In this document: positions 23,320 to 64,000 of the stretch, in pieces
How the letters are laid out: every line of letters starts with the position of its first letter
Numbering within the stretch: position 1 is the stretch's first letter
Assembly: GCF_934636665.1 (NCBI RefSeq)
Contig: NZ_CAKUAT010000012.1
Span: forward strand, 19,470-83,469
DNA: 64,000 nt
DNA from: an uncultured Senegalimassilia sp.
GTDB taxonomy: Bacteria; Actinomycetota; Coriobacteriia; Coriobacteriales; Eggerthellaceae
Reading direction: 5' to 3'
The notes under the pieces: model-generated
What the model saw: the letters and a program-made list of their open reading frames with translations, nothing else
Database searches by the model: none
Told to the model about the DNA's origin: nothing
Translations under genes and position numbers: made by a program

Positions 23320-23790
23320 GCTGTAGCGTCAGTGGCTTTGCGCACTTTTAGGTAGTCGCCGGCACGGCTACTCTTTGAGCAGAGACGCGTCCAGGTATCG
23401 ACGGGAGCCCCATTCGCTGTCGGCGACGTATTTCAGGCGGGCGGCAACCAGCATCAGCGCGGATTTCCCGTCGGGGAACGTGCCGACAACGCGGGTACGC
23501 CGCCTGATCTCCCTGTTGAGCCGCTCGATGGCGTTGTTCGTGCGGATGCGCCGCCAATGCTCGCGGGGCATCTCGCAGTACGTCAGCGTCTCGGCGAAGC
23601 CTTCGCGCACGACCTTTGCGGCCTCCTTCAGCCTCATCGACTCGAGCTCGGCTGTCACCGACTCGGCCTTGGTCGCCGAGGTGAATCTGAATCTGCCCCA
23701 GATCCGTTGACAAGTCGATTTCCGTTTCGGTTGGACTGGGACTGTTTTATGGACATCCGGAATCGAGCTGATGAGCGCACTGCCGCTCAT
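23320..23790 (-). mobile_element. IS256-family remnant (C-terminal ~140 codons of transposase + IR)
   Basis: Near-identical to the C-terminus of the 26298..27450 copy; abuts the IS3 element. Confidence 0.7.
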
Positions 23791-26261: not shown

Positions 26262-27525
26262 GTGCCGTCAATAGTTTTGCGCACTTTTAGCTAGCCGTCA
26301 GCACGACTGCTCTTTGAGAAGCGACACGTCCAGGTAGCGGCGGGAGCCCCACTCGCTGTCGGCGACGTACTTCAGGTGGGCGGCCACCAGCATGAGCGCG
26401 GACTTGCCGTTGGGAAAGGTGCCGACCACGCGGGTGCGCCGGCGTATCTCCCTGTTCAGGCGTTCGATCGCGTTGTTCGTCCGGATGCGCCGCCAATGCT
26501 CGCGGGGCATCTCGCAGTACGTCAGCGTCTCGGCGAAGCCGTCGCGCACGACCTTGGCGGCCGAGGCCTCGCGCGACTCCATCGCGTGGATGGCCTTGAG
26601 CATGGCCGCGACCTGGGAGCGCTTCGATTTCGGAGCCTTGGCGAGGACGTTGCGGTAGAAGTGCACGGTGCAGCGCTGGTATTTGGCGCTAGGGAAGACC
26701 TCGGCGATCGAGCCGACCATGCCGGCGGCCTTGTCGCCGGCGAACACGCGAACGCCGCGCAGCCCGCGGGACTTGAGCCACGACGGGAAGTCGCGCCAGC
26801 CCCCGGCCGACTCGGCGAAGCCCTCGGCGCACCCGATCGCCTCGCGGTAGCCGTCCTCGTTCACGCCGATCGCCGCCATGACGGCGACGTTCTCGTAGGA
26901 GCCTCCCCAGCTGCGCTTCAGGTAGACGCCGTCGACGTAGACGTACGGGCATTCGCAGGCCAGGGGGCCTGCATCGCCGCTCCTCGGCCGCCTTGAAAGC
27001 CTTGTCGTTGAGGTTTGAGGCCGTGCCGGCGGAGACGCCCGCGCCCCACAGGATCTCGCTGACGTCCTCGATGCGGCGCGTGGGCACCCCGGCCAGGTAC
27101 ATCTCGATGATGGCCTCCTCGACGCTGGTCTCGCGCCTCTTGCAGCGCTCGACGACGGCGGTGGCGAAGCGCATGCCCTTGAGCTTGGGCATCTTGAGCG
27201 TGAGCTGGCCCGACGTCGTGGTGAACCCGCGCTCGTAGTGCCCGGCGCGGTACGCCGCGCGCTCGTCGGTGCGCTCATAAGGGCCGGCGCCGACGAGCCG
27301 GTCGGCCTCCTCGTCGGGCATCGCGTTGATGGTCTCCTCGATGGTTTTCCCGACCAGCTCGCGAAGCTCGGACTTCACCGCCTCCTCGTCGAATGATGCG
27401 ATTGGGTTGGACATGACCTGCCTCCTAGCATGATTGAATTCGACACTCAAATCATACCGACGGCACGCGCCATGTCTTTTCTCTTTCCTGGGCGTGTTCA
27501 GCTTTCAAAGTGCGCAAATATTTTT
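26262..27525 (-). mobile_element. near-complete IS256-family insertion sequence with one frameshift in the transposase (pieces 26689..27450 and 26298..27278)
   Basis: N-terminal MSNPIASFDEEAVKSELRELVGKTIEETINAMPDEEADRLVGA…, DDE region and conserved C-terminus; imperfect IRs at both ends. Confidence 0.75.
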
Positions 27526-29095: not shown

Positions 29096-29233
29096 TGCTA
29101 TTCGGTTTGAAGGCGGCTTTTCGGAGCCGATTCATCGCCGATGACGATCAGAATGAGTTGCAAAAGTCTGGAGATTCAAACTCTAGAAAACAGATAGTTC
29201 AGCTATCTAGTCGGAGCATTTCTGCAGGTAATC

Positions 29234-29422
29234 TTGTTTTTCGTCTTGGCAAAAGGGATGAGCGTCGTGGGCCCGCGCCCTGCGCTGCCGAACGAGGTGG
29301 CAACCTACAACGATTACCAGCGCCAAAGGCTGCTGGTGAAACCCGGCATGACCTGCTATTGGCAAACCCGTCGAAACCGCGACTCCATAACCTTCGACGA
29401 GTGGGTTGACTTGGATCTGTGA
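29234..29422 (+). pseudogene. 3' fragment of sugar transferase gene, copy 3 of 3 (ends …DEWVDLDL*)
   Basis: ~90% nucleotide identity to 8790-8945. Confidence 0.7.
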
Positions 29423-30683: not shown

Positions 30684-30763
30684 CAGGGACGGTGAACAGG
30701 GGACGGAGGTGTGTTCAGGATGCGTCTTCGGGAAGTGCAAGCCTTTTCCTGAACACACCTCCG
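30684..30763. repeat. 80-bp palindromic element: 26-bp perfect inverted arms gaacaggggacggaggtgtgttcagg / cctgaacacacctccgtcccctgttc around a 28-nt loop containing tgcaagcctttcc
   Basis: Read from sequence; related copies at 36739-36818, 56969-56997, 60218-60246, 62855-62904. Confidence 0.85.
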
Positions 30764-30818
30764 TCCCCTGTTCACCCTGTTCGCCTAGCGGAAACGATTG
30801 GAGGCAGGTGTGGCGGAA

Positions 30819-33800
30819 ATGGAGAAAGCAAGGAAGCATTCGGGGATTGAGCGGGTTTTGGGCCAGTCCATCGGCGTTGATCCTGAGCAATGCGGGCTGC
30901 TTTTGCTGGCTGGCCCGGTTGGCGCGGGCAAGACGTACTCGTCTATGAGCCATATCGCTGATCAGCTTATAGCGTTCGGACCGAAGTGCAGGCGGTTCGT
31001 CTTTGTGACGAACGTGAAGCGGAATCTTCCCGTTGACGAGTTGCTGCAAATCCTCGATGAGCGCGGCCACCCCGAGCTTGCCGCGTACGTGGTTAAGCTC
31101 GACTCGAATCTAGGGATGTTCCAAAGCAATATCAACGCCGCAAAAGGCGTTATGCCAAGCGCCCCGTTCTCCTATTGGAAAAAAGGACCCAAGAAGCCCG
31201 GGTCGAATGAGCGCGCGGTCATCAAGGCCGAATTCAACATTCGGAACCTTCCCGAGCTGCAAGAAGCGGAGAGGCTGCAGCGGATTCTCGAGGAGACGAG
31301 GAACCTCCCTCTGCATGTCGGTGCTGCTCGGCGCAAGGCAATCGAAGGCGCTGAGGAGGAAGCGGAGAAGGCCGAGAGCAAGCTTCGACGACACATTTCG
31401 TCGGTATTTGCGTCCATGTGCAAGCTTGATGAAGACGGCTACCGCTTGATGACGCGGCAGGAGAAACGCGAACTTGTCGAGAAAAGCGCCTGGTGGGAAT
31501 GGCTAAGAGTGCTGTATCCGTCGGTCCTGACGCACAAGAAGCGCGTGCTGTTCATGAGCGTGAACAAGCTGCTGGTGAAAAACTCCCCCATCATCGAGCC
31601 GTCGGAAAGCATTTGGGAAAGCGACTTGCTAAAGGGATCAGTCGTGATCATCGACGAGTTCGAGCTATCGAAGAGCGTCATCAACGACTTCCTGATTCGC
31701 GAAAGCGTTGGCAAGATGGCCGACATGGTAAGCATGCTCCGCATGCTTATGGGCCGCGCGCTCGAGGGTCGCCAGATCGACGGCAAGGGCGGCGACGGCG
31801 ACGCGGGTGCGGCGTTCACGAGCGAGCTGTTCCGCAGCCCTTCGAACAGGATCGGCTGCGGGCCTGAGCTTCGTGCGGAGTTCGGCGCCATCGTGAACGC
31901 CGCGGAAGAGGCGTATCTCGAACTGCACCTGGACAAACAGTTCCGCCTGAGCGACAGGCTGCGCTATAGGAACCAGCCGTTTCTCTTCAACGACTTCCAA
32001 AGCCATATCGTCGATGTCGAAGACAGTTCATGGTCGGCGATCCGTTTCCTTGAAAGCCAGAACACCATCGAATTCGGTTCGGGCACTCCGCCCTATGCTG
32101 GGGGCGAGGCTTCGATAACGGGGCTACGTGAAGTCGATTCCTACTCCGTCCCGTTGTTGCTGAGCAGGCTCGAAGGCCTTGTCAGATGGATCGTCAGCTG
32201 GATCGCCCGCGTCGCTGAGAATTACCAAGCGGTCGTGGCCGAGGACGCCGATCAGGGAAAGCGTCCCGAAATCAGTTTTGACCAGGCTGTCGGCACGGTG
32301 CTGTCCGAGCTCAACATGATGGACGAGGTGCATGGCGAGCTGAACCCGGCGCGTCGGCGCGTCATCGAGATGGCGCATGAGGAGCGGGCGCGCCGCGCGG
32401 CGGTCGATGACGGGGCAAGGGATGATGATCCGGCAGATTTGAGCTTGTATCACAAGGGCTTCAGGGTGCACTCGTTCACCGAGTCCGCGAAGCATGACAC
32501 GTTAACGCGTATGGAGCGCTGTGCGCTTTCTTGCACGGCAGAGCGCAAACTCATCGAGTTGAGTCGCCGCAACTTCGTGGTGGGCATTTCTGCGTCCTTG
32601 GATATACCGTCTGTTCTGGGCAATTACGATATCGATTACATCAAGGCGGCTCTCGGCGACCGATGCATCTTGCTGGATGCAGCCCAGCGACAGGGGATCG
32701 AGGAAGACTACCGACGCAGCGTAAGCCGCTACGATAACGTGGAAATCCGCGTCAGCAAGATTTCCGACGTGGATTCCGAGGGGGAGTACAGCGAGAAGGC
32801 GTGGCTTGCCGTGCTCGATGATGCGGTGGTTGCTCGCAAGGCTTTCAACAAGGTTGCGATGGACTTTTCCACCGCTGACGGACGCTTGACGTTCGGGCAG
32901 CGGCGAGTGTTGAAGGTTTGCGCCGCGTTCAAGGGATTCTGGAAGGCCGATGATGCTCGCGCCATGCTTTGCGTTTTGAATGCGTTGCCGAAGGCCGGCG
33001 GAAGCGGGTTCGACCTGATGAAGCTCAAAGACGTGTTCGGGATGGTCTTCGAGCAGCTAGGGATCGACGGCAACGTGGATGACGCGTTTTACGTTCTCGG
33101 CGGCGGCAACGAGGAGTTTGAACGCGCGAAGAAGCAGGCGCTTTCGCGTTTGGCGGCGGGTGAGAAGCTGTTCGTGATCACGGCGTATCAATCCGCGGGT
33201 GCGGGGCAAAACCTGCAATACAAGATTCCCGAAGGCGCAACCCCCGTTCAAATCAACGATCGCCCCGCATCTGAGGAAATGGATTTCGATTGCCTGTACG
33301 TGGAGGCCCCAACCCATACATCCCCGGTGATCACCGGAAACGAGAAGGTGGACGAATACCAGGTAGTGCACCATATCTTGGGATGCGAGTACCTGTACGA
33401 GAATGCTGAAATCAGCAGAGGGGCGTTGCTCAGGAGCGTTTCGGAGGCGTTGCGCGCGCTTGGCGGTTCCGGGGTGGATTACGGCTACAAGGCAACCGAT
33501 AGCGCGCGGCTGTTCGGGGCGAAGCAGGTGTATCAGGCTGTGGGCCGTTTGAGCAGGACCAACATGAAGATGCCGGTGATTAGGCTGTTTGTCGACGCCG
33601 GCCTTATGGAAGGCGTTCCCTTGGGCGTGCTGAAGTCGTGCGGGCTTACGTTCACGCCCGAGTTCGGGGCGTTGGTGGACGCGTTTGACGAGCCGATTCC
33701 CCAGTCTTCGAAGGATGTCAAGCGCTTGCAGCGCAGGGCGGCGCGCGCGTCCGACAGGTCGCGGGCCTGCATTAACTCGCTTTTGGGCTCCGGCTGGCGG

Positions 33801-34562
33801 GACGATGCTCGCAAGGCGTGGTTTGACCTGGGGAATCAGGTTCTCAAGCATCCGACGCTTCCCGATAGCTGGAACGAGGTCCCGTATATGGAGCGGTGTT
33901 ATTACGTCGAGCTTGATGCGAAAAGGACGTCGTATCGGTACACCGCAAAAGATGATTTCGCGTCGGTCGAGGTGCTCTTCGATCCACCCGCCGGTACAAA
34001 AAGCTTCGAAGTGAGCGAAAAAGCCGCGCGCCTGGACGTGCTCATGCGCATTCCTGGTATGCGGAGCTATTTCGAGCAGTGCGGATACGCTACGAAATGG
34101 GAGGCTTCGACAAGGATCATGACCCCCATTGTTGCCGAGAGCATCTACAAGGGGCGCCTTGGCGAAGTGTGCGGGCGTTTCGTCCTCGAGCAAAGCGGCA
34201 TTGCGGTCGCGGATATCGACGACGCTTTCAGGTTCGAGAAATTCGACTTCGTGCTGCCTGGCACGCTGGGCGACCAAGAGGTGTTTATCGATTTCAAGCA
34301 CTGGAAAAAGCAGTCGGATAGAACGGGGTGGGACTCGGAGAAGCTTATCGATTGGGTGTTCGCGAAGATGGAGGCGATCGACGCCAAGAAGGCTATCGTC
34401 GCTAACGTTTTGCTTCCTGACGAGGGCGATTATCGGGAGACGTACCGTTCAAAAGACGGGCGAAGGCTTCTTGTGGTGCCTGCGCTCGTCAAAGGCGACT
34501 GCTCATTCGACGAAACGGCGATTCAGGCTATAAGGAGGTTTATCGATGGCGTTGTTGACTAA
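30819..34562 (+). CDS. large P-loop NTPase / SF2-helicase-like protein with C-terminal PD-(D/E)xK-like motif (candidate helicase-nuclease defense protein)
   Basis: Walker A LLLAGPVGAGKTY, DExx box VVIIDEFE, helicase motif V/VI-like VITAYQSAGAGQNL and QAVGRLSRT, C-terminal FDFVLPGTLGDQEVFIDFKHW; alternative TTG start at 30798. Confidence 0.8.
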   Translation: MEKARKHSGIERVLGQSIGVDPEQCGLLLLAGPVGAGKTYSSMSHIADQLIAFGPKCRRFVFVTNVKRNLPVDELLQILDERGHPELAAYVVKLDSNLGMFQSNINAAKGVMPSAPFSYWKKGPKKPGSNERAVIKAEFNIRNLPELQEAERLQRILEETRNLPLHVGAARRKAIEGAEEEAEKAESKLRRHISSVFASMCKLDEDGYRLMTRQEKRELVEKSAWWEWLRVLYPSVLTHKKRVLFMSVNKLLVKNSPIIEPSESIWESDLLKGSVVIIDEFELSKSVINDFLIRESVGKMADMVSMLRMLMGRALEGRQIDGKGGDGDAGAAFTSELFRSPSNRIGCGPELRAEFGAIVNAAEEAYLELHLDKQFRLSDRLRYRNQPFLFNDFQSHIVDVEDSSWSAIRFLESQNTIEFGSGTPPYAGGEASITGLREVDSYSVPLLLSRLEGLVRWIVSWIARVAENYQAVVAEDADQGKRPEISFDQAVGTVLSELNMMDEVHGELNPARRRVIEMAHEERARRAAVDDGARDDDPADLSLYHKGFRVHSFTESAKHDTLTRMERCALSCTAERKLIELSRRNFVVGISASLDIPSVLGNYDIDYIKAALGDRCILLDAAQRQGIEEDYRRSVSRYDNVEIRVSKISDVDSEGEYSEKAWLAVLDDAVVARKAFNKVAMDFSTADGRLTFGQRRVLKVCAAFKGFWKADDARAMLCVLNALPKAGGSGFDLMKLKDVFGMVFEQLGIDGNVDDAFYVLGGGNEEFERAKKQALSRLAAGEKLFVITAYQSAGAGQNLQYKIPEGATPVQINDRPASEEMDFDCLYVEAPTHTSPVITGNEKVDEYQVVHHILGCEYLYENAEISRGALLRSVSEALRALGGSGVDYGYKATDSARLFGAKQVYQAVGRLSRTNMKMPVIRLFVDAGLMEGVPLGVLKSCGLTFTPEFGALVDAFDEPIPQSSKDVKRLQRRAARASDRSRACINSLLGSGWRDDARKAWFDLGNQVLKHPTLPDSWNEVPYMERCYYVELDAKRTSYRYTAKDDFASVEVLFDPPAGTKSFEVSEKAARLDVLMRIPGMRSYFEQCGYATKWEASTRIMTPIVAESIYKGRLGEVCGRFVLEQSGIAVADIDDAFRFEKFDFVLPGTLGDQEVFIDFKHWKKQSDRTGWDSEKLIDWVFAKMEAIDAKKAIVANVLLPDEGDYRETYRSKDGRRLLVVPALVKGDCSFDETAIQAIRRFIDGVVD

Positions 34563-36714
34563 CAAGCTGAGCATTTCCTTGGTGCACGAGGAGTTTGACA
34601 AGCGGTATGACGTGTTCGAGGTGACGAAAGAGGGCAAAGGGCATCTTTCTTGGTCGTCGCGCGTTTTCGAGGCGTTTGGCGCCCCGTATATCCTTTCGAT
34701 TCTCGGTCAAGGTGGGGATGACCCGTTCTATATCCTTGCCCCAAAAGGCATCGTGTCGGTGAGGGGGCTCCGCGATCATTTCGAGAAAAGCTACGGCGGT
34801 GTTATCGAGGATGAGGATTTGGAGTCAGCCGACGTGGCAACAAGCCTGCTTCCAAAACAGGTGCCAAGCCGCAATGTGTCAGAGCATATTTTGGTGCAGC
34901 TGCTGCTTAACGCGCTTTTTGCGGGCAACAGCGAGAACGGCCCGTCCCTGCAAAACGTCGCCGGGCACCTCTATTGCTTCAAAACAGGCAGGGATTGGGT
35001 TAAGAAGACGAAGAGCGGGCGCAATCTGCACATTATCGGACTGGAGCTCAAGGTGACGCCGGAATCGTTGCTGAAGGTGAATGTTAGAACGTTCACCAGG
35101 GCAAATGCCGCCGGTCTGATATTCGATGGCAGGAAGAAAAGCGAGTACCCGCGGTACGTGGTCGACTTCGATGGCCCAACTATGCGTCGTGCTTCCCCAG
35201 GTGAAAGCCCTGAGGCCGACAACGTTTTCATTCAGAAGCAGTACGAGGGGCAGAAAAGCAAGATCCCGTTTTTGAAATACGGCAATCGAAAGGCTTTTGC
35301 GAACTCGAAATGCGGGGTTATCCAAGAGGTCGTCGAGCGGTTTAACGAGACGTATGCGGGCATGGCGAGCATATCTTTCAAGGCGATTGATGATTCCAAG
35401 CGCGCGCCCGTTCCCAAGAAGCTGATGAAAGCCGATTACCTCGCGTGGTTCGCGCGAGACGAGTACGTGGTGGTTGACGTTGCTAAAGACGGCGCAAGCA
35501 GGAAGGCGTGCGAATTTGTTGCCGATTGGCTTGCGTTCGATGAGTATCTCAGCGTGCGTCCGCGCATTGTGGACAGTGCCGTCGCCGGTGCCAACAACCT
35601 GCTGATCCTTCATGAGAAAGCGTATTACGAGGACCGGGGGATCAACGACCCCTATGTTGCTTCCGTGCTTGAAGGCGCAGCGTGCCAGCATTTGACCGTC
35701 GAGACCGTGCAATCTGAGTTCGGTAAGCCGAAGGAAGACAGTGGCATGCGTTTCGTCATTCCGAAATGCCTGGTCGAAGCCGCGGTTAAGCGCGATATTT
35801 GCGATGCTGCTATGCGCTTGTACGATTGGAGCGCGCTCGAGTGCGACGGTCCGCTGGTTTTTGCACTTTGCGGGCCCGAGTCGAAGGAGGAAAAGAAGGA
35901 GCGCGAGAGGGACAAGTCGCCAAGGCGCTATTCGTTTCTTGAGGTGAGCTCGGCGGGCGCACTGGCGTTCTATCAGGGATGTTCGGACAACGCGGCCTCG
36001 GGTTCCAAGTGGGATAAGCTCGCAGATGTGTTTACAAGCGAGTGGTCGTCTGAGACGGAGGGTTTTGCGATCAACGCCGCCGGCGACATCGATGCGATCG
36101 AGCTGACGGATGGATTTCCCATTCCCGACCTTGCCACGATTAAGCGCGCTGTGGAGAGCATCGACTGGTCGCTGCCGAAAAGCGACGTGCTCGAGGCGGT
36201 ATCCACTCTTACGGAAGACCCTGCTATCGACATCGCATTGCGGGCACTGTGCGAGTGGGTTTCCGAGATGCCGGATTCTTTGGTGAAGGCATCGAAGCTC
36301 AACTCGTTGGTTGTGGATGCTGCAAAGATGGTCGATGAGAAATACCCGGCGCGGCGTATTCGAGAATTGGTTGACGCTCGGCTGGAGGAGCGGTTCTCAA
36401 GGCGCCTTTTGACCGGCGTGCCCCGCGACAAGGAAGCGCTTGCGACAACGTACGAGCCGATCGTCAAGATGCATTGCGTTCGGGAAGACGATTCGCTGCT
36501 GTATTGGGTGAGCAACTTCGATGGCCTAAGCCGGATGGGTCGGGAAAACGGCTGCGTCATCAGGAGTGTTCGCAGCGTCAACGGCGAGAACCCGTTCTTC
36601 GCGGATTTGCTCGAAACGCTCGTTGTGCCCATCGCGCGCCTGGGCAACGCCTCGGTGCTGCCGCTGCCCTTCAAGTACCTCCGCGAATGGATGGAGAACG
36701 TAGCGGTGGAGTGA
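34546..36714 (+). CDS. 722-aa protein of unknown function, translationally coupled to the helicase-like gene (17-nt overlap)
   Basis: Long ORF with coding-like composition; no recognisable motifs. Confidence 0.75.
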   Translation: MALLTNKLSISLVHEEFDKRYDVFEVTKEGKGHLSWSSRVFEAFGAPYILSILGQGGDDPFYILAPKGIVSVRGLRDHFEKSYGGVIEDEDLESADVATSLLPKQVPSRNVSEHILVQLLLNALFAGNSENGPSLQNVAGHLYCFKTGRDWVKKTKSGRNLHIIGLELKVTPESLLKVNVRTFTRANAAGLIFDGRKKSEYPRYVVDFDGPTMRRASPGESPEADNVFIQKQYEGQKSKIPFLKYGNRKAFANSKCGVIQEVVERFNETYAGMASISFKAIDDSKRAPVPKKLMKADYLAWFARDEYVVVDVAKDGASRKACEFVADWLAFDEYLSVRPRIVDSAVAGANNLLILHEKAYYEDRGINDPYVASVLEGAACQHLTVETVQSEFGKPKEDSGMRFVIPKCLVEAAVKRDICDAAMRLYDWSALECDGPLVFALCGPESKEEKKERERDKSPRRYSFLEVSSAGALAFYQGCSDNAASGSKWDKLADVFTSEWSSETEGFAINAAGDIDAIELTDGFPIPDLATIKRAVESIDWSLPKSDVLEAVSTLTEDPAIDIALRALCEWVSEMPDSLVKASKLNSLVVDAAKMVDEKYPARRIRELVDARLEERFSRRLLTGVPRDKEALATTYEPIVKMHCVREDDSLLYWVSNFDGLSRMGRENGCVIRSVRSVNGENPFFADLLETLVVPIARLGNASVLPLPFKYLREWMENVAVE

Positions 36715-36738
36715 GAGTGACTGAGCGGGGGGAGGCGT

Positions 36739-36818
36739 GAACAGGGGACGGAGGTGCGTTCAGAATGCAACTTTGCGAAATGCAAGCCTTTCCCTGAACA
36801 CACCTCCGTCCCCTGTTC
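36739..36818. repeat. second copy of the 80-bp palindromic element (same orientation, one arm mismatch), directly after the two-gene cassette
   Basis: gaacaggggacggaggtgcgttcag…tgcaagcctttcc…ctgaacacacctccgtcccctgttc. Confidence 0.85.
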
Positions 36819-36854
36819 TCGCTGGCCGTTGTCGCGCGACTTCGCCCTTTCGCC

Positions 36855-54928: not shown

Positions 54929-55188
54929 GCGTTGCCGGGAGCGCCGGCGAGGGTGTGGGCTTACGCTAGCGGTTGTGATTCGCGAAAAGTCGGTCGCGAC
55001 CGGCGGCGAGGCCCCGGACGCCGGCGGGGCGGAGCGGCGCGGGCTTGCGCTAGCGGTTGCGATTCGCAAGAAGGCCGCAGGTGGTGATGGGGTCGCGACC
55101 GGCGGCGAGGCCCCGGACGCCGGTGATATCGCGTAAAGGCTGCTTGCTACGGAGGGGCGCTGGCGACAGCGGACGTAGGGCGCTCCCG

Positions 55189-56968: not shown

Positions 56969-56997
56969 CGTGAACAGGGGACGGAGGTGCGTTCACG
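56969..56997. repeat. single-unit copy of the palindromic element (cgtgaac-aggggacggaggtgc-gttcacg) after the TetR gene
   Basis: Direct reading. Confidence 0.7.
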
Positions 56998-57115
56998 CGC
57001 GGATCGTGCGAGCATTTCCACAGCCCTCTTTGCGCGTGCTATACCCGGGGCTGATTGCCGCCGCCGGTCGACTTCTGGACCGTTTCGCAGGTTTTGGCCC
57101 TCGTTTTCCCTCTGA

Positions 57116-57252
57116 AAACGCACTTCTGGGTGGTTTTCCGCGTCATTTTTCGCGTTCGCCAAATATGTCGCAAGAAAACCCCTGTTCAGGAAAATCCCAA
57201 TCATACGCTTATGATTTTGCAGCCTGCAAAACCGCCCAGAAGTCGCGGGGGT
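57116..57252. repeat. inverted pair of the caaaaccgcccagaagtcg motif (57116-57137 reverse, 57222-57252 forward)
   Basis: Same motif family as 40884-41360. Confidence 0.6.
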
Positions 57253-57569
57253 GCGGTTAGCGGGGGCATGAACACGCCCTCAGCACGAAACTACGCGGCA
57301 AACAAGTTGACGAAATATCAGAAAAGTAAAGCGCACCCTTTACAAAACACCGCTTAGGTCCATTCCTCCCACAATTCACGCTTCCTATAATCCTCCCTCG
57401 TAGGGTCGAGCGCGCATAGGGCGTTTGCTCGAGGCGCCCGCGAAGCTTCGCGCTTTCGCCGGGGCGCACGTTGCCCGCCTGCTCCGAAGGGGGCTGCGAA
57501 CCGACGCGCCGAATCGCGTTGTCACTGCGGCAAAACAGCAGGCAGGCGCAAGCGAGAGGAAGGAACAAC

Positions 57570-59354
57570 ATGGACAAATCCGGAATCAGCCGCCGTAGCT
57601 TCCTGACCGGTGCCGCTGCCATCAGCGCGGCGCTTGCCGGCGCGGGCCTGACGGGCTGCGCTCCGAAGGTGGTCGGCGTTGCGGGCGGTGCCGCAGGCGC
57701 GGCCGGCTCGGGCAACGGCCAGACGATGGGCTTCGACGGAACGGGCGCCATGCCGTGGCTCGGCGAGGCGCCGTCTATCTCCGACAGCGACGTGGCCGAG
57801 ACGCTCGATGCAGACGTCGTGGTCGTGGGCCTTGGCTGCGCGGGCGTTCCCGCAACGCGCGCGGCTGCCGAAGCCGGCGCGAAGGTCATCGCCATCGAGG
57901 CGTCCGCCCAGCTCAACAGCGTGGCCAGCGACATGGCCATCCTGGGCGGCGAGACCATGGCCAAGTGGGAGCGCGGCGACGGCTTCCTGGACAAGCGCAT
58001 GGTGGTCAACATGCACATGGAGGAGGGGAGCCACCACTCGAACTTCGGCATCATCAGCCGTTATTGCGACGAGTCGGGCAAGGCGCTCGACTGGTTCGTC
58101 AAGGGGTGCCCGGACATGTACATCGCATCCGAAAGCTACGAGGAGGTCCCCGAGGCCAACCGCGCCCACTACCTGTACCCGTACTTCTATCCCATGCTGG
58201 AAACGTACGACTACACGAAAGAGGACATGCCGTGCTACCCCACGTCGGTGGGTTTCTCCAGCCTGGCCACGGCCATGGCCGATAACCTCAAGCGCGCCCA
58301 GGAGGCCGGCGCCGAGGTTCGCTACAACACGAAGGGCGTGAAGCTCATCACGGCCGATGACGGCAGCATCGCGGGCATCTACGCGCAGGACACCAGCGCG
58401 GGCAAGTACCTGAAGATCAACGCGAAAAGCGTCATCCTGGCCACGGGCGACTATCTGGCCAACGAGGACATGATGAAGTACTTCGCCCCCGCGTGCATCG
58501 AGAACGGCAACCAGATCCTGTCGCTGGACCTGGACGCGCAGGGCAACTACACCAACGTCGGCGACGGCCACAAGATGGGCGTGTGGGCCGGCGCGGCGGT
58601 GGAGCAGTGGCATGCGCCGATGATCCACCACATGGGCGGCGGCGCCGGCTCCGACGGCCGCGGCGTCATCGGCAACAACGGCTTTCTGTGGCTGAACCTC
58701 CACGGCAAGCGCTTCATGAACGAGGACGTGCCTGTTCAGCAGCTTGAGAACCAGGTGGAGCTCCAGCCGCAGCGCAAGGCCTACCAGTTCTTCGACAGCT
58801 CCTGGCCCGAACAGCTCAAGTACTTCCCGGCCGCCCACGGCATCGCCTGCATCTACAAGGACGAGGCGCTGCCGGACTGGACGCCGTCGGGCCTGAAGAT
58901 CAACGTGCGCTGCCCGGCCGACATCGAGGCCGCCGTGGCCGAGGGCCGCTGCCTGAAGGCCGACACCATCGACGAGCTGCTGGCGAAGATCGACGGCATG
59001 AACGCCCAGGTGGCGAAGGAGTCCATCGAGCGCTACAACCAGCTGGCGAAGGCCGGCTCCGACGAGGACTTCGGCAAGAGCAGCCAGCGCATGTTCGCCC
59101 TGGAGAACGGCCCGTTCTACGCCGCCGAGTGCGGCGTGGCGCTCACGTTGGCGAACCTGGGCGGCCTGGAATCCGACAGCGACTGCCACGTGTACAACAC
59201 CGAGCGCGAGGTGATCTCCGGCCTGTACGCGGCCGGCGCCCCGCAGGGCGGCCGCTTCAACGTGCAGTACCCCATCTCGCTCAAGGGCCTGTCCGCCGGC
59301 ATGTGCATGGTGTTCGGCAAAATCGCAGGCGAGAACGCCGCGGCGGGCAAGTAG
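57570..59354 (+). CDS. second Tat-exported FAD-binding flavoprotein reductase (paralogue of 52395..54038)
   Basis: SRRSFLTGAAAISAALAGA Tat signal; VVVVGLGCAGVPA dinucleotide fold; conserved GDGHKMG(M/V)W(V/A)GAA block shared with paralogue. Confidence 0.85.
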   Translation: MDKSGISRRSFLTGAAAISAALAGAGLTGCAPKVVGVAGGAAGAAGSGNGQTMGFDGTGAMPWLGEAPSISDSDVAETLDADVVVVGLGCAGVPATRAAAEAGAKVIAIEASAQLNSVASDMAILGGETMAKWERGDGFLDKRMVVNMHMEEGSHHSNFGIISRYCDESGKALDWFVKGCPDMYIASESYEEVPEANRAHYLYPYFYPMLETYDYTKEDMPCYPTSVGFSSLATAMADNLKRAQEAGAEVRYNTKGVKLITADDGSIAGIYAQDTSAGKYLKINAKSVILATGDYLANEDMMKYFAPACIENGNQILSLDLDAQGNYTNVGDGHKMGVWAGAAVEQWHAPMIHHMGGGAGSDGRGVIGNNGFLWLNLHGKRFMNEDVPVQQLENQVELQPQRKAYQFFDSSWPEQLKYFPAAHGIACIYKDEALPDWTPSGLKINVRCPADIEAAVAEGRCLKADTIDELLAKIDGMNAQVAKESIERYNQLAKAGSDEDFGKSSQRMFALENGPFYAAECGVALTLANLGGLESDSDCHVYNTEREVISGLYAAGAPQGGRFNVQYPISLKGLSAGMCMVFGKIAGENAAAGK

Positions 59355-59363
59355 GAGGCTGCC

Positions 59364-60131
59364 ATGACCGGTAAGAACAAGGTTACGGAAACCGTTTCCG
59401 CAGATGAGAAGGTTGATGGCGCGAGTGCGGGCGCGGCTGGCGCAGCGGGCGCGACCCCGTCGCCCAAGCGTGGACGCCGCAAGGTGACGGCGGTCGTGGC
59501 CACCGTGGCCGTGGTGCTGATGGCGGCGGGCGCGGGCTTCATGGTCTGGCATGATTCGCCCAGCTTCTGCAACGCGATCTGCCACACGCCCATGGACGGC
59601 TACCTGACCACCTACGAGTCCACGCCGGGCGAGGCCGCCACGGACAAGTGGGGCAACCAGGTCGCCGACGCGTCCAGCATGCTGGCGCCGGTGCACGCCC
59701 AGGAGGGCATCACGTGCGTGGGCTGCCACGTGCCGCAGATGTCCGAGCAGGTCACCGAGGGTTTTGGCTGGCTGACCGGCAGCTACAGCGTCGTGCAGAC
59801 CGCTGACGAGCGCTTCGTGCCTGAGGAGAAGTCGCTGTCCGACCTGACCGCGGCGCGCGGCATCGCCAGCGAGGCGTTCTGCCTGAACTCTGGCTGCCAC
59901 GTCAACGACGACGGCTCCAACATGACGCGCGACGACCTGGCGGAGAAGACCAGCTACATGAAGCGCAACCCGCACGTGCAGGAGCACGGCGAGGTCGCCT
60001 GCAGCGAGTGCCACAAGGCGCACCGCGCATCCACCGTGTACTGCAGCAAGTGCCACAGCGACGCCACCATCCCCGATGGCTGGATCAGCTACAAGGAAGC
60101 CGAGGCCCTAGAGCCCACGGCAGTCGAGTAG
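59364..60131 (+). CDS. second membrane-anchored multihaem cytochrome c (5 motifs incl. CX4CH)
   Basis: CNAICH, CVGCH, CLNSGCH, CSECH, CSKCH; N-terminal TM helix. Confidence 0.85.
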   Translation: MTGKNKVTETVSADEKVDGASAGAAGAAGATPSPKRGRRKVTAVVATVAVVLMAAGAGFMVWHDSPSFCNAICHTPMDGYLTTYESTPGEAATDKWGNQVADASSMLAPVHAQEGITCVGCHVPQMSEQVTEGFGWLTGSYSVVQTADERFVPEEKSLSDLTAARGIASEAFCLNSGCHVNDDGSNMTRDDLAEKTSYMKRNPHVQEHGEVACSECHKAHRASTVYCSKCHSDATIPDGWISYKEAEALEPTAVE

Positions 60132-60178
60132 GGAAGAAGCGCGCCGCCGAGCGTGCTGTGAGCCCACCCCGCTTGCAA

Positions 60179-60211
60179 GCCCCTGCCGGGATTCTCGGCA
60201 GGGGCTTTTTG
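60179..60211 (+). terminator. rho-independent terminator gcccctgccg-ggattctc-ggcaggggc-ttttt
   Basis: Perfect 10-bp stem plus U-tract. Confidence 0.7.
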
Positions 60212-60217
60212 CTGCCA

Positions 60218-60246
60218 GGCGAACAGGGGACGGAGGTGCGTTCGCG
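60218..60246. repeat. single-unit copy of the palindromic element (gcgaac-aggggacggaggtgc-gttcgc)
   Basis: Direct reading. Confidence 0.7.
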
Positions 60247-60396
60247 CTCATTCACCTTTGCCATCTAATCGTTACCGTGAGCGTTGCGATTTCTCCGGTA
60301 AACGGCGGGCTTTAGCGTTACACTGACTGCAGCTGTAACGCTGCGGGCTTCGCCAAGGGGAACTGCTGAGTCCGCTCATGTAAAGGGGGTGCCGCC

Positions 60397-61560
60397 ATGG
60401 CGGTCAATCGTTTCGTGCTCAACAACATCTCGTATCACGGCGCCGGCGCGATCGGGGAGATTCCCGGCGAGATCACGCGCCGCGGTTTTGCGAAGGCGTT
60501 CGTGTGCTCCGACCCTGACCTGGTGAGATTCGGCGTCACGGGCAAGGTGACGGCCAAGCTCGACGAGGTCGGCATCCCGTGGGAGCTTTACGACCAGATC
60601 AAGCCCAACCCCACCATCAAGAACGTGCAGGACGGCGTGGCTGCGTTCAATGCTTCCGGCGCCGACATGATCGTGGCCGTGGGCGGCGGTTCGGCCATGG
60701 ACACCGCCAAGGGCATCGGCATCATCGCGGAGAACCCCGAGTTCGCCGACGTGGTCTCGCTCGAGGGCGTGGCGCCCACGAAGAACCACGCCACGTTCAC
60801 CATCGCCGTCCCCACCACGGCGGGCACGGCGGCCGAGGTCACCATCAACTATGTGATCACCGACCCGGAAAAGGTGCGCAAGTTCGTGTGCGTCGACGTC
60901 AACGACATCCCCGATGTGGCGGTGGTCGACCCCGACATGATGGCCAGCATGCCGGCGGGCCTGACCGCGGCCACGGGCATGGACGCGCTCACGCACGCCA
61001 TCGAGGGCTACACCACGAAGGGCGCGTGGGAGCTGTCCGACATGTTCCACCTGAAGGCCATCGAGCTGATCTCGAAGAACCTGCGCGCGGCGTACGCCGA
61101 GGCGAAGTCGGGCGAGCCGGGCGCCGGCCGCGAGGGCATGGCGCTTGGCCAGTACGTCGCCGGCATGGGCTTCTCCAACGTCGGCCTGGGCATCGACCAT
61201 GCCATGGCGCACACGCTGTCGGCGCACTATGACACGCCGCACGGCGTGGCGTGCGCAATGCTGCTGCCGGTGGCCATGGAGTTTAACAAGCCGGCGTGCG
61301 CCGAGCGTCTGGTCGACGTGGCGCACGCCATGGGCGTCGACGTTGCGGGTATGAGCGCGGAAGAGGCCGCCGATGCCGCCATCGCCGCCGTGCGCCAGCT
61401 GTCCGCCGACGTGGAGATCCCGCACACCTGCAACGGTCTGGTGGCGGAAGACCTCGAGCAGCTGGCAACCGACGCTATGGCCGACGCCTGCTTCCCGGGC
61501 AATCCCCGCGAAGCCGACCACGCCCAGGTGGTCGACCTGTTCCGCAAGGTGATGGCGTAA
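60397..61560 (+). CDS. iron-containing (group III) alcohol dehydrogenase (FucO/DhaT-like)
   Basis: GGGSAMDTAKG, metal-binding His pattern …HAIEGYTT…GLGIDHAMAHTLSAHYDTPHG. Confidence 0.9.
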   Translation: MAVNRFVLNNISYHGAGAIGEIPGEITRRGFAKAFVCSDPDLVRFGVTGKVTAKLDEVGIPWELYDQIKPNPTIKNVQDGVAAFNASGADMIVAVGGGSAMDTAKGIGIIAENPEFADVVSLEGVAPTKNHATFTIAVPTTAGTAAEVTINYVITDPEKVRKFVCVDVNDIPDVAVVDPDMMASMPAGLTAATGMDALTHAIEGYTTKGAWELSDMFHLKAIELISKNLRAAYAEAKSGEPGAGREGMALGQYVAGMGFSNVGLGIDHAMAHTLSAHYDTPHGVACAMLLPVAMEFNKPACAERLVDVAHAMGVDVAGMSAEEAADAAIAAVRQLSADVEIPHTCNGLVAEDLEQLATDAMADACFPGNPREADHAQVVDLFRKVMA

Positions 61561-61668
61561 GGTTGCGTTTCCGGGTGCGGCCTCGCGGATAAGACTGTGC
61601 GCGAAGGGTCGTAAACGCAGGAGAGCGTGAGTACGCCGCCAAAGGGCCAGCAGTTTGAGCGACGGTAA

Positions 61669-61706
61669 GGGCCAGCAACTCGTTTCGAGTTGCTGGCCCT
61701 TTTTTG
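61669..61706 (+). terminator. rho-independent terminator ggccagcaactcg-tttc-gagttgctggcc-cttttttgg
   Basis: 13-bp stem + U-tract. Confidence 0.75.
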
Positions 61707-61986
61707 GCGGCGAAGCGGTGTGGGCGCCGATGACGTCACGGTGGTGCGTCGGTGGGGTCGCCACGATGTGCTTGTTCGAGCTGCATGTTCGATATCGAGC
61801 TCGGTCTGGTGCTGCTTTGGGGTTTTGCGGCGCGGCGCGGGTTTCCGCTTTGCGGCCCAAGATGTTCTTTTCGCCATAGGGCGTGCCAATTACCAGGAGA
61901 AACCGTTCGTCGATGAAGTCATTTCGGCAATCTTGGGCACAGCTGTGCGTTTGCTATGCTGAAGCCCCCCAATTGAAGGAGGCGAC

Positions 61987-62463
61987 ATGCGCAAGAACGG
62001 TAACATGCTTGAATGGGCAATTGAGGTTGCGGTGGTCGTTGCAATCGTGCTCTTGCTGATGGGAGCATGCTTTTGGGTGGTTCCGCATCTTCAGAAAATG
62101 GATCGCTCATCGTCGCCTACGTTCTCGGTCTTTGACGCCGAAGATGCACAATCGAAAAGGGGAAGCGTTCCGCAATCCGACGATATGGTTGGCGGTATCG
62201 ACGATGTGGTCTTTCATGGTAAAGGGGTTGTGACGTCTTTGGACGCCGCCGCGCTCATTGCGTGCATTCGCATAACGTCAGAGGATTCTTATGGTCTTGA
62301 GCAAGGCGGAGAATATCGCTTCAATTTCGATGAGCGCTTCGAACAAGTAAAGCTTACGCTCGATGGTATCGATGTTGGCAGCGTTGTGGATTTTCGCTAT
62401 CGAGCCATTACCTGCGACAAGGAAGGAACCCTCGTGGGCGAGTTCATTACGCTGGCGCTATAG
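61987..62463 (+). CDS. small membrane-anchored hypothetical protein (158 aa) on an inserted cassette
   Basis: N-terminal TM helix WAIEVAVVVAIVLLLMGACFWVV; lower GC than flanks. Confidence 0.5.
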   Translation: MRKNGNMLEWAIEVAVVVAIVLLLMGACFWVVPHLQKMDRSSSPTFSVFDAEDAQSKRGSVPQSDDMVGGIDDVVFHGKGVVTSLDAAALIACIRITSEDSYGLEQGGEYRFNFDERFEQVKLTLDGIDVGSVVDFRYRAITCDKEGTLVGEFITLAL

Positions 62464-62854
62464 GCTGCGGAAGGGTTTCGCGGTGCCGCTTGTGTTTGGG
62501 TGAACAGGGTGGTGCGGCGCTTCCGGGGTATCTGCGGTGCTCGTGGCCGAAAATGCGAGAGATGCGCAACTGCGGAGGGTTCGATAGGGTATCCGGGTGC
62601 AGTTGGGCAGCAAATGCGGCGTTCAAGGTCGATTTCGCCGCATCGAGACCCGGATTCGGCTCCAATCCGGGTCGTGTCGGTGCAACGCACGGTTTTTGTC
62701 CATCACGCGGTCTTTTACCAAGCGTGTTGCCCTCGAAGGGTCGCGTCCGTCGGGCGCGATTTGATTTGGGGCGCTCTTGCGTGCTCCAAAGCGCGGACAG
62801 CAAACGCGCCAGGCGAACGAGGGGCGTCGGGCGAATAGGGGATGATGAGCGGGC

Positions 62855-62904
62855 GAACGGGGGACGGAGGGGCGTTGCTGTGAACGCACCTCCGTCCCCC
62901 GTTC
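62855..62904. repeat. full hairpin copy of the palindromic element (gaacgggggacggaggggcgtt-gctgtg-aacgcacctccgtcccccgttc)
   Basis: Direct reading. Confidence 0.8.
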
Positions 62905-62944
62905 GCGTTCCCCAACCACTCGGCAGCCGGTAACCTGCAGCTTT

Positions 62945-63002
62945 GCGAAGCCGACCACGCCCAGGTGGTTGACCTGTTCCGCAAGGTCATGGCGTAAGGT
63001 AG
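62945..63002. repeat. ~55-bp duplicate of the 3' end of the Fe-ADH gene (cf. 61508-61565), marking the distal end of a ~1.4-kb insertion
   Basis: gaagccgaccacgcccaggtggt[c/t]gacctgttccgcaaggt[g/c]atggcgtaagg at both sites. Confidence 0.8.
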
Positions 63003-63184
63003 CCGTGCGCAGGCCCCGAGCTAAGGCGCTGGCGCGGAACCAGAACGGCCGCGATAAAGGCGTAACCTACTAGGGGTCGTCCCCGGAAGAACTCCGGGGA
63101 CGACCCCTTCTTGCTGCAAGCGATTCTCTTGTGGGCGCATATGCATCCCGGTGACCCCTGGACAGATCAAAGCCAGGGCTTGGC

Positions 63185-64000
63185 TTAGGCCTCGAACGGG
63201 TTGTCCTTGTCCTCGGGCTTCTGCTGGGCGGCCTGGGCTGCGAGGATGTCCGGGAGGATCGAGGAGGAGCCCTCGAAGCCTGACGGGAGCAGGATGGTCG
63301 AGGCCTTGCCGGATTCAGCGAACGACCCCATCATCTCCACCCACTGGGTGTACGTGAACAGGTCGTTCGCTTCCTTGGCTGACACGCCCGAGGACTTGAT
63401 CACGTCAAGCGATGCAGCGATGCCGTCGGCGATGGCCTTGCGCTGGTTCGCGATGCCGATGCCCGTCTGCTCCATGGCCTCGGCCTGGGCGCGCGCGGCC
63501 ACGACGGTCTTGGTACGCTCGGCCTCGGCAAGCGCCTTCGCCGCCTCCTGGTCGCGCTGCGCGGAGTTGATCGCGTTCATTGAGCGCTCGACGTCCTTCG
63601 GCAGCTCGATGTCGGTGATGAGCGTGGTGATGATGTCGTAGCCGTAGCCCGCCATGAGCTCCGTCACGGAGTCCTTCACGTTTTGCGCGATGAGGTCCTT
63701 GTTGTCGAACACCTCGTCGAGCGTGTAGCCGGGGATGGCCGAGCGCAGGGCGTCGGCGATGTAGCTTTCCATCTGGTCGATGGGGTTGCTCAGGATGTAG
63801 TAGCTGCGGTAGACGCCCGACTGCTCGACGGTTTGGGCGGGCATCTGGTCGACGCGGAACTGAACCGACACCGCCGTGCCGATGGTCACGTTGTCCTTGG
63901 TCTTGCCGTTGAGCGAGTAGCGCGCCTCCTGGGTGCGCAGGTTGACCTCGGCGGCGCGGCGTTCGATGATCGGGATCAGGAAGTGAAGGCCCGGCTGCAC
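63185..64000 (-). CDS. SPFH/band-7 (stomatin/prohibitin-like) protein, N-terminus beyond window end
   Basis: …NVTIGTAVSVQFRV…YIADALRSAIPGYTLDEVF… and Ala/Glu-rich coiled segment typical of SPFH proteins; ORF runs off the window. Confidence 0.8.
   Translation of the reverse strand: MQPGLHFLIPIIERRAAEVNLRTQEARYSLNGKTKDNVTIGTAVSVQFRVDQMPAQTVEQSGVYRSYYILSNPIDQMESYIADALRSAIPGYTLDEVFDNKDLIAQNVKDSVTELMAGYGYDIITTLITDIELPKDVERSMNAINSAQRDQEAAKALAEAERTKTVVAARAQAEAMEQTGIGIANQRKAIADGIAASLDVIKSSGVSAKEANDLFTYTQWVEMMGSFAESGKASTILLPSGFEGSSSILPDILAAQAAQQKPEDKDNPFEA

Follow-up and report, generated by a model that had tools for sequence, protein, structure and literature searches.

A duplicated alcohol dehydrogenase 3′ end in Senegalimassilia as the possible remnant of a displaced resident gene

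The 64,000-nucleotide stretch of uncultured Senegalimassilia DNA analysed here (the window) carries an iron-containing alcohol dehydrogenase (ADH) gene whose 3′ end recurs downstream of a gene for a small protein, ORF158. The second copy of the gene end (R2) fits the description of a displaced and orphaned end of the gene better than that of a duplicated target site, and it may well derive, at roughly even probability, from a formerly complete resident Fe-ADH gene that was displaced by recombination. The copy would then be a decaying leftover of old recombination, the kind of scar that genome evolution ordinarily leaves, and no part of an active mobile element, a reading held with middling confidence. 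Dedicated mobile-element machinery is not needed for such a history. The locus would provide a natural example of a gut actinobacterium that acquired a small accessory gene and retained it, apart from losses in some lineages, with no mobile-element machinery involved, and it illustrates that transposition cannot be concluded merely from a low-GC gene flanked by a long direct repeat. For annotation, R2 would be labelled a pseudogene fragment and ORF158 a real, selected and clade-restricted gene for a predicted membrane protein.

Table 1. Features of the ADH locus (positions in the window).
Feature	Coordinates	Strand	Remarks
Hairpin-repeat solo arm	60219..60243	+	153 nt upstream of ADH start codon
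Iron-containing alcohol dehydrogenase gene	60397..61560	+	387 aa, intact; Pfam PF00465 + PF25137; low dN/dS
R1, left repeat copy	61508..61566	+	Functional ADH 3′ end: last 51 nt + stop codon + 5 nt
insA, hypervariable non-coding spacer	61567..61986	+	Holds present ADH terminator and ORF158 Shine-Dalgarno sequence
ORF158	61987..62463	+	Low-GC small protein, N-terminal transmembrane helix and beta-rich domain of ~100 aa; lineage-restricted
insC, conserved non-coding block	62464..62852	+	Core 62511-62757
Dispersed hairpin repeat, short-loop copy	62853..62906	.	Constant right border of variable slot
preR2, 38-nt spacer	62907..62944	+	Possibly further-decayed ADH sequence (compare ADH 61453-61473)
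R2, right repeat copy	62945..63003	+	Orphaned, non-functional ADH 3′ end
Native ADH-to-Band_7 spacer	63004..63184	.	Bidirectional terminator 63072-63087/63093-63108; contiguous with single repeat copy in empty alleles
Band_7/SPFH-family gene	63185..64000	-	Convergent with ADH, cut off by window end; Pfam PF01145 on L001 genes

Anatomy of the duplicated gene end and the intervening segment

The two copies of the ADH 3′ end are 59 nt long, identical at 56 of the 59 positions and 1437 nt apart, and a 56-nt core pattern of the repeat has two exact matches in the window against none expected from 100 shuffles, which confirms the downstream duplication reported in an initial annotation of this DNA. 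R1 runs on from the upstream flank of ADH and R2 runs into the downstream flank known from the empty site of relatives. The three differences between the copies are two synonymous changes in the ADH frame (GTC to GTT and GTG to GTC) and one base past the stop codon. Identity between the copies stops 5-8 nt past the stop codon, just where orthologous genes standing in different contexts would cease to resemble each other. The gene that ends in R1 gives matches to the Pfam families Fe-ADH and ADH_Fe_C with E-values of 1e-44 to 1e-57, and its dN/dS between lineages is 0.02-0.06 at a dS of 0.17-0.22.

The identity of R2 to R1 ranges across lineages from about 47/59 to 57/59, with 56-57/59 in the window's own clade and substitutions of up to about 20% in other lineages. 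An in-frame TAG is found in R2 in five lineages and a 1-nt deletion in R2 of L101; R2 evolves neutrally and is decaying like a pseudogene. The left boundary of R2 is identical in all occupied lineages, which points to a single ancient event. Site 44 is swapped between R1 and R2 when the window is compared with L019, and conversion from R1 accounts best for the high identity that the two copies have in some clades. The R2 relic of L124 keeps a 22-nt core and is too well preserved for a neutral orphan of that age, so that gene conversion or a second event is required there.

The 1378 nt between the repeats contain the ADH terminator, a low-GC gene for a 158-aa membrane-anchored ORFan, the block insC and one copy of a dispersed hairpin. 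ORF158 has a GC content of 0.50-0.53, compared with 0.63-0.71 in the ADH gene, and its dN/dS is 0.20-0.31. Its dS of 0.24-0.30 is close to that of ADH, which marks the event as old and the segment as vertically inherited. The reading frame is disrupted in L009 and L148. No Pfam or PHROG family matches the protein, and the AlphaFold2 model (pLDDT 45, too poor for a fold search) is confident solely in the helix of residues 4-38. An exhaustive HMMER search confines its homologs to this clade apart from P0017, a plausible match at 29% identity in an unrelated gene context; two further matches are apparently spurious translations of repeats. ORF158 is a real gene under selection that encodes a clade-restricted, predicted membrane protein.

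The non-coding parts of the insert evolve differently from one another. In insA, a perfect 16-bp stem (61667-61682/61686-61701) followed by T6 forms the ADH terminator, and the spacer is merely 74-90% identical between lineages, with indels, and has no match in L128. The sequence DYLEKPF at its end, considered as a receiver-domain remnant, was dropped for want of Pfam support. The block insC includes a degenerate hairpin arm at about 62499-62520 and partial arm reiterations at 62808-62852, and a paralog (insC′, 72-74% identity) lies upstream of ADH in L022 and L136-143 with hairpins on both sides. As a candidate structured RNA insC was rejected, with 3 of 91 pairs compensatory and an unfavourable covariation term. 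The 38-nt spacer preR2 has a weak similarity to ADH (collinear alignment test, p about 0.01-0.07) and none to the native post-hairpin promoter spacer.

The palindrome that closes the variable segment has 24-nt arms (62853-62876/62883-62906) that are 96% complementary, is found in a full 84-nt form in other lineages, and is unrelated to the left hairpin of the insert at 61667-61701. Its arm occurs in 8 copies in the window against none expected, the repeat occupies five sites in the 64 kb and 3-4 sites per 11-18 kb in related loci, and it is a dispersed intergenic imperfect palindrome with the many copies typical of REP/BIME-like repeats. An Rfam scan of 60100-63250 returned spurious miRNA-type hairpin matches, all well under gathering scores, and the hairpin repeat is not in Rfam; obvious terminators went unlisted by a simple promoter/terminator scan, as their stems fall outside its rules. 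The lower-GC gene for a small membrane-anchored protein, the ADH terminator and the palindromic element that had been described between the repeats all hold up in this analysis.

Alleles of the locus in related genomes

Five allele classes were distinguished at the locus: possibly donor-like, long-spacer occupied, short-spacer occupied, empty and re-filled. The sister species L021 has an empty site with a single repeat copy and both flanks contiguous, and the alleles L137 and L140 of a Senegalimassilia anaerobia-like species likewise have a single copy with ADH and Band_7 contiguous. The empty site anticipated by the initial annotation, with ADH directly before the 63-kb region, is thus found in all three. 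Its 1.4-kb insertion stands as a presence/absence segment relative to some relatives; the further claim, a mobile cassette inserted with duplication of its target, is not supported. The ADH genes of empty alleles are 2-3% diverged from those of the occupied alleles that co-occur with them, the occupied ones being 99.7-100% alike, and this divergence marks the empty alleles as old haplotypes and not recent excisions.

A more distant relative, L128, has an ADH gene (94% amino acid identity) followed by a terminator and an ORF158 homolog, and lacks both R2 and Band_7. This arrangement is donor-like; it could equally be a derivative that has lost R2 and Band_7. In L141 the filler between the repeats has been replaced, with the left junction in the last ~15 nt of R1 and the right junction at the edge of the hairpin, and its repeat spacing of 503 nt is the shortest of any allele; this replacement is an independent one. 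Between S-type and M-type alleles, the stretch that differs begins exactly where R1 ends and stops exactly at the left edge of the 62853-62906 hairpin. Deletion has left about 40 nt of the native spacer past R2 in L101, L105, L136 and L144, which are S-type alleles, and insC together with the hairpin is deleted in L123. On the upstream side, L101 and L122 have a full hairpin where the window has a solo arm, and the S. anaerobia-type genomes have a hairpin-insC′-hairpin arrangement before the intact ADH that mirrors the insC-hairpin before R2. That L022 derives from an ancestor with tandem ADH genes by deletions from hairpin to hairpin was considered and rejected, since insC′ and insC occur together in occupied genomes of that species.

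A difference in gene content between L011 and L012 was only apparent and arose from differing gene calls, and the odd upstream sequence of L105-L108 was compared and gave no match. The ADH-Band_7 synteny is confined to these genomes, so that further outgroups gave no polarity of insertion versus loss. About 60 related contigs yielded no donor and no allele in which more of a second ADH survives. ADH has 21 fixed differences from L021, evenly spread, two of them in R1 (P = 0.25), and this comparison gave no divergent donor patch and no clustering in the 3′ region. The lack of a patch implies that a donor was very closely related or that R1 and R2 did not differ when the event took place, and it fits the lack of any donor as well.

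Proposed displacement of a resident ADH end

Several observations at the locus agree with displacement of a resident gene end. A same-orientation 3′ fragment lies downstream of a functional ADH gene and is still joined to its old flank, homology stops at the ADH end and new DNA begins there, and a donor-type arrangement exists in L128, though there it may reflect secondary loss. Two chromosomal repeats of the genus, the hairpin family and insC, are present in the insert, which points to a related chromosome as its source and not to a phage or plasmid.

The incoming DNA would have come from a related Eggerthellaceae chromosome in which ADH was followed by its own terminator and ORF158, and would have entered a locus of the ADH-Band_7 type. 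One side would have been joined by homologous recombination, within ADH or in the upstream hairpin-repeat region, and the other by an illegitimate join or a deletion with its end point 51 nt (possibly about 110 nt) upstream of the resident stop codon. This could have taken one step, by homology-facilitated illegitimate recombination, or two, with tandem ADH loci followed by a deletion that removed the greater part of the surplus copy. The incoming ADH end, R1, would have stayed functional; the resident end, R2, still joined to its native spacer and Band_7, would have been pushed 1.4 kb downstream and would have been decaying since. Later changes would be of ordinary kinds: deletions, which took the post-R2 spacer in S-type alleles and insC with the hairpin in L123 and disrupted ORF158 in L009 and L148; a second replacement of the filler between the ADH end and the hairpin in L141; and the exchange of whole alleles, with homologous recombination in the genes on either side. 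R1 and R2 probably also underwent gene conversion or crossover with each other, and a crossover can also regenerate an empty site.

A precedent comes from T6SS and rhs loci, where orphaned 3′ ends are left behind by homology-facilitated illegitimate recombination or 'C-terminal displacement' (PMC5361080, which refers to Prudhomme 2002, de Vries & Wackernagel 2002 and Jackson 2009). The ADH locus shares with the rhs/CDI/T6SS cases the order of functional gene, acquired DNA and displaced 3′ fragment, all in the same orientation with the old neighbour kept, and likewise the decay of the orphan and the lack of an encoded recombinase (PMC5361080). It departs from them in that the incoming end of an rhs/CDI/T6SS gene is a different toxin tip with an immunity gene and displacement there is recurrent and adaptive, whereas at the ADH locus both ends encode the same protein end, the protein is a metabolic dehydrogenase, a single small ORFan makes up the cargo, and there is only a single primary event together with one secondary replacement of the filler (L141).

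Alternative origins of the duplicated end

A decayed, integrase-made att pair is the main rival, and an unlikely one. According to this alternative, an element whose attP mimicked the last ~59 nt of ADH integrated site-specifically, with R1 as attL and R2 as attR; the element would have been a prophage, an AICE/ICE or an island that lost its integrase and most of its genes, or one that was cis-mobilisable and serviced in trans. Integrative elements that target the 3′ ends of genes include the integrase-less CIMEs of Streptococcus thermophilus and actinomycete elements with att identity segments of 40-110 bp, and the range of these segments in actinobacterial elements such as pSAM2 and SLP1 includes 59 nt. 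The ADH locus resembles them in that the direct repeats cover the 3′ end of the target gene with its stop codon and leave the gene intact, in that precise empty sites with a single att-like copy exist in L021, L137 and L140, and, as with the small derivatives, in the lack of an integrase. The GC content of ORF158 is foreign-looking, and the repeat contains a 9-6-9 dyad, GCCGACCAC-GCCCAG-GTGGTCGAC, of a kind present in just 2.8% of 59-nt windows of the sequence, with a second dyad across its left edge.

These points are set against the distribution of the segment and its repeats. No integrase gene or remnant was found in the insert or within about 10 kb of it in any allele, and Pfam and PHROG scans of all alternative ORFs gave no transposase, integrase or recombinase in any frame of the insert, in agreement with the lack of a transposase noted earlier. 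The window has one copy of the insert, and in every fetched locus the insert is found behind ADH alone. The search for the small gene elsewhere with the same repeat, which the initial annotation had proposed, gave no other site for the cassette in any fetched locus; nothing similar to it occurs in viral, phage or plasmid collections, both the repeat pattern and ORF158 are absent from viral contigs, and the fetched contigs contain no circular junction. The 62 other Coriobacteriia ADH loci compared have no duplication of the ADH 3′ end, so that the site is not a recurrent att site. The locus differs from integrative elements in that a cognate integrase-bearing element and a second integration site are lacking, excision has left no sign, the duplication does not recur at orthologous ADH genes, and the insert consists in part of chromosomal repeats of the genus. 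The empty alleles are diverged haplotypes and not fresh excisions, and L128 has ADH next to ORF158 without an attR. The arguments against an integrase are in large part negative ones and concern a very old event.

Local duplication as the first step is improbable. A tandem copy of ~60-110 nt of the ADH 3′ end would have arisen by slippage or unequal exchange, and the gap would later have been filled by ORF158, insC and the hairpin. Agreement with such an order of events comes from R1 and R2, which bear no sign of differing origins, from hairpin elements and insC that vary independently, and from L141, which proves the filler changeable. Several independent insertions into one gap of ~0 nt would nevertheless be needed, and no allele has adjacent or near-adjacent copies, the minimum spacing being the 503 nt of L141. 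The adjacency of ADH and ORF158 without a duplicate in L128 is left unexplained, as is the occurrence of insC-hairpin before both the intact ADH of S. anaerobia-type genomes and R2.

It is very unlikely that the hairpin repeat and conserved gene ends such as the ADH 3′ end are the borders of exchangeable slots, serviced by an unrecognised trans-acting recombinase that binds hairpins or dyads. The ORF158 cassette and the L141 filler would then be products of one Eggerthellaceae cassette-exchange system, and the swap between FAD-reductase/cytochrome c and insC′ that lies between hairpins upstream of ADH would belong to the same system. Such exchange would be loosely analogous to integron attC sites or REP/RAYT elements. 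Compared with attC, the hairpin lies 390 nt past ORF158 and is a genome-wide intergenic repeat that also flanks multi-gene modules, and no integron-type cassette array is found at the ADH locus.

The literal reading of the initial annotation, in which a non-autonomous element made a 59-nt staggered cut and duplicated its target, accounts for a direct repeat around a discrete segment and for the empty site, and yet is most improbable: known target duplications of transposases are 2-15 bp, so that the repeat is several times too long, no terminal inverted repeats join the ends of 61567-62944, no transposase or other recombinase is encoded, no second copy of the insert occurs in the window or in any of the loci, and a single ancient event without recent excision is seen. 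It is scarcely credible that R2 is a conserved functional element, for instance a regulatory or terminator-associated sequence, and not the scar of a junction, since the high identity in the window's clade and the L124 core that would favour this stand against the stop codon, the indel and the substitutions of other lineages, the absence of R2 from empty alleles and from L128, and a site 44 swap by which conversion from R1 better explains the identity; nor are all relatives occupied with the repeat conserved as a regulatory element, the outcome against which the initial annotation had weighed an insertion, as R2 decays elsewhere.

With displacement of the resident ADH end as the preferred reading, the hairpin family specific to this Eggerthellaceae group and the conserved non-coding block may be better leads than the duplication. 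Like REP/BIME or Correia elements, the hairpin is an imperfect palindrome of about 84 nt that is dispersed through intergenic regions and has a conserved loop, is present as full copies and solo arms, is deletion-prone and lies at the boundaries of variable segments; unlike them, its family is specific to this group and no target duplication is seen. The membership of the palindrome in a dispersed repeat family goes beyond the initial annotation, and one arm of the family lies just upstream of ADH (60219-60242).

The duplicated ADH end and its contents

The feature downstream of the Fe-ADH gene (ADH) in this member of the gut Coriobacteriia (Senegalimassilia/'Eggerthella sp. AM16-19' group) is an old scar of an already known kind, and it is now immobile. 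The functional ADH 3' end (R1) recurs as an orphan copy (R2), and of the mismatches between them two are synonymous changes when read in the ADH frame, the third falling past the stop codon. The initial annotation had described a direct repeat enclosing a terminator stem, a low-GC gene and a palindrome; the repeat is real, with no such pair in shuffled sequence, and every listed component was recovered. No second duplicated gene end was found within the 64-kb window, and 0 of 62 other Coriobacteriia ADH loci carry a 3'-end duplication. One 9-nt dyad sits at the left edge of R1 (61490-61514) and another inside it (61513-61536), with spacers of 6-7 nt; across the window, just 2.8% of 59-nt segments contain dyads of this type.

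Features of the ADH locus, the hairpin repeats and the alleles of the S. anaerobia-like species
Feature	Locus	Positions	Description
Fe-ADH gene	window	60397-61560	Pfam Fe-ADH and ADH_Fe_C; gene end inside R1
R1	window	61508-61566	59 nt
Stem	window	61667-61701	perfect 16-bp stem plus T-run, between R1 and R2
ORF158	window	61987-62463	158 codons, between R1 and R2; GC ~0.51 vs ~0.67 in ADH
insC	window		390 nt non-coding, between R1 and R2
Palindrome (hairpin repeat copy in the slot)	window	62853-62906	24-nt arms, between R1 and R2
R2	window	62945-63003	59 nt, 56/59 identical to R1
Full hairpins (~84 nt, conserved loop)	window	30692-30775; 36737-36820	flank two-gene module (30798-36714)
Solo hairpin arms	window	56970-56993; 60219-60242	flank FAD-reductase/cytochrome c pair (57471-60131) directly upstream of ADH
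Occupied alleles	L136, L138, L139, L142, L143		with ORF158 cassette
Empty alleles	L137, L140		one repeat copy
Third allele (M type)	L141	11455-12060	slot

ORF158 is a real gene, with a dN/dS of 0.20-0.31, and its dS of 0.24-0.30 is close to the 0.17-0.22 of flanking ADH, which shows that the segment is old and vertically inherited. It is disrupted in a few strains (a frameshift in locus L009, an in-frame deletion in L148), and homolog searches restrict the family to the window's clade. The protein is predicted to carry a single transmembrane helix plus a beta-rich domain; the quality of its structure model was too low for use. The core of the non-coding block insC (62511-62757) is 85-96% identical across lineages, with no covariation support for an RNA.

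Alleles in related genomes

The order ADH-ORF158-Band_7 is found in all contigs with an identical ADH or ORF158 protein, and the full order of R1, the spacer insA, ORF158, insC, hairpin, the spacer preR2 and R2 is kept in at least six diverged lineages (compared in the fetched loci L019, L101-104, L105-108, L118-123, L136 and relatives, and L144). As the left edge of R2 (...CAGCTTT|GCGAAGCC) is identical across all occupied lineages, the cassette and orphan trace to one ancestral event. R2 itself behaves like a pseudogene fragment, with CAG>TAG in the ADH frame in five lineages, a 1-nt deletion in L101 and identity to R1 that falls from 57/59 to ~47/59. Four contigs from different samples (L105-L108, positions 1-144) are all broken 58-144 nt upstream of ORF158, where their upstream end is unrelated, more AT-rich sequence with no match in anything else fetched.

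Empty sites, which the initial annotation had proposed to seek in related genomes, are present in L137, L140 and L021 ('Eggerthella sp. AM16-19'), the last with an ADH of 95% nucleotide identity and one repeat copy joined directly to the homolog of window position 63005 onward. At 21 fixed positions the L021 ADH departs from every occupied lineage; most of these differences are private to it, which places L021 as an outgroup to the occupied clade. Three allele classes occur inside one S. anaerobia-like species, collected via the exact TetR protein of L022. In the M-type allele, R1 precedes ~125 nt of unique sequence, after which come a copy of the native ADH-Band_7 spacer/terminator (75% identical), hairpin, preR2, R2 and Band_7; ORF158 and insC are missing. 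This allele differs from the occupied ones (S type, with a short post-R2 spacer) over exactly the interval between the R1 end and the hairpin's left edge. The empty alleles retain a long post-repeat spacer that the occupied alleles of the same species have lost, and their ADH diverges by 2-3% from that of the occupied and M-type alleles, a group with 99.7-100% ADH identity among its members, so that the alleles are old. Judged from these sequences, the presence/absence polymorphism reflects old haplotypes swapped via flanking genes rather than recent excision. Hypervariability is also seen in this species upstream of TrmO (L136-L143, positions 1-8000), where strains differ in having a 2200-aa surface-type protein, a BREX-like set (BrxA/SNF2), or a PIN toxin together with a type I restriction helicase.

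In the deeper relative L128 (ADH 90% nucleotide and 94% amino acid identity), ADH, terminator and an ORF158 homolog stand in a row, followed by NTP_transf_8, DUF6788, GerE and p290, the genes found after Band_7 in L105, with neither Band_7 nor orphan. The NTP_transf_8 and DUF6788 pair lies directly 3' of the ORF158 homolog in L127/L128; some lineages have it between Band_7 and GerE and others lack it (L105 2318-3200 vs L120 and L136). Locus L124 has an ORF158 homolog of 59% amino acid identity and, 65 nt past it, a 22-nt relic of the ADH end (543-564, reading VVELFRK) that matches the real ADH end of L128 at 21/22 positions, a score equalled by only 6 of 1000 shuffles; it is too well preserved for a neutral relic of such age. 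Together with the L128 arrangement, it indicates that the ADH-ORF158 link predates the window's genus-level radiation, and the orphan either dates back as far, with conversion having preserved its similarity, or arose more than once. With L128, which has ORF158, as the deeper outgroup for polarity, L021 could lack the cassette through secondary loss via an R1-by-R2 crossover, or its empty site could equally be the primitive state. ADH-Band_7 synteny was not found in any further genome. Long G and C homopolymer runs occupy the ADH-to-ORF158 spacer of L128 (800-870) and probably explain the contig breaks there in most contigs of that lineage.

Origin of the scar

Repeats of this kind at gene 3' ends arise in two ways: an integrase inserts DNA whose attP mimics the gene end, or recombination displaces the resident end. 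Sequence comparison leads us to favour displacement of the resident ADH end, to which we give about even odds, over an integrase relic; displacement would have proceeded by homology-facilitated illegitimate recombination or, alternatively, through a tandem arrangement followed by deletion. Displacement is favoured because the R1/R2 homology ends just past the stop codon, the point at which orthologs from different contexts cease to be alike, because the orphan is still attached to its native downstream spacer, and because L128 shows a donor-like ADH-ORF158 arrangement. It is further favoured by the chromosomal repeats of the same genus inside the insert, and by the hairpin-insC'-hairpin array (insC' being an insC paralog) before intact ADH in S. 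anaerobia-type genomes, which mirrors the insC-hairpin order before R2. Within the same genome insC and insC' differ by ~27% and R1 and R2 by 8-10%, divergences that would roughly fit one age if R2 alone decays freely. The weak similarity of preR2 to the part of ADH immediately 5' of R1 (p ~0.01-0.07) points the same way, as does L141, where the ADH end and hairpin anchor a second replacement that is independent of the first. No divergent patch was found in the 3' part of ADH. The rhs and T6SS loci, where the same signature is on record (PMC5361080), resemble the ADH locus in their displaced gene end.

An unlikely origin is integration through an attP mimicking the gene end, the integrase having since been lost: the repeat length and its position at a gene end fit, as do the 9-6-9 dyad within the repeat and the second on its left edge, and enough time has passed since the event for an integrase to disappear. 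No integrase was found within ~10 kb in any allele, neither the repeat nor ORF158 in viral contigs, and the insert in no phage or plasmid record. The initial annotation had read an insertion with target-site duplication and noted the absence of a transposase; no recombinase or transposase is indeed encoded in any frame of the insert, and the insertion stands in outline, since empty sites exist, while transposition target duplication is not supported for a 59-nt repeat with these properties.

Hairpin repeats, insC and other repeats

Among the side observations, the family of hairpin repeats and insC are the more original ones. The arm (GYGAACAGGGGACGGAGGTGYGTTC) has eight copies in the window vs zero expected. 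In related genomes full hairpins stand at the positions of the window's solo arms (56970, 60219), copies at other sites vary between present and deleted among strains, and copies lie at allele breakpoints. The element matched nothing in Rfam or a literature search; the exact arm occurs in nine IMG/VR contigs. Upstream of ADH, genomes of the S. anaerobia type carry the paralog insC' (72-74% identity; L022 5405-5659; L136 9742-10007), and both blocks are hairpin-flanked. In the window (56970-60243), L021, L101 and L122, two hairpin arms in the TetR-to-ADH spacer enclose an FAD-dependent reductase and a multihaem cytochrome c, whereas the spacer of the S. anaerobia-type species has only hairpin-insC'-hairpin (L022 5196-6000; L136 9532-10343).

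Elsewhere in the window, three ~300-nt copies that are 82-88% identical (20056-20352, 23327-23623 and 26266-26562) are probably paralogous genes, and other repeats lie at 20395-20694 and 26552-26851, at 4966-5222, 8535-8942 and 29222-29421, and at 54952-55123. A repeated intergenic block carries TTGACA-like motifs and a hairpin, and a ~99-bp tandem repeat precedes the ORF at 55057.
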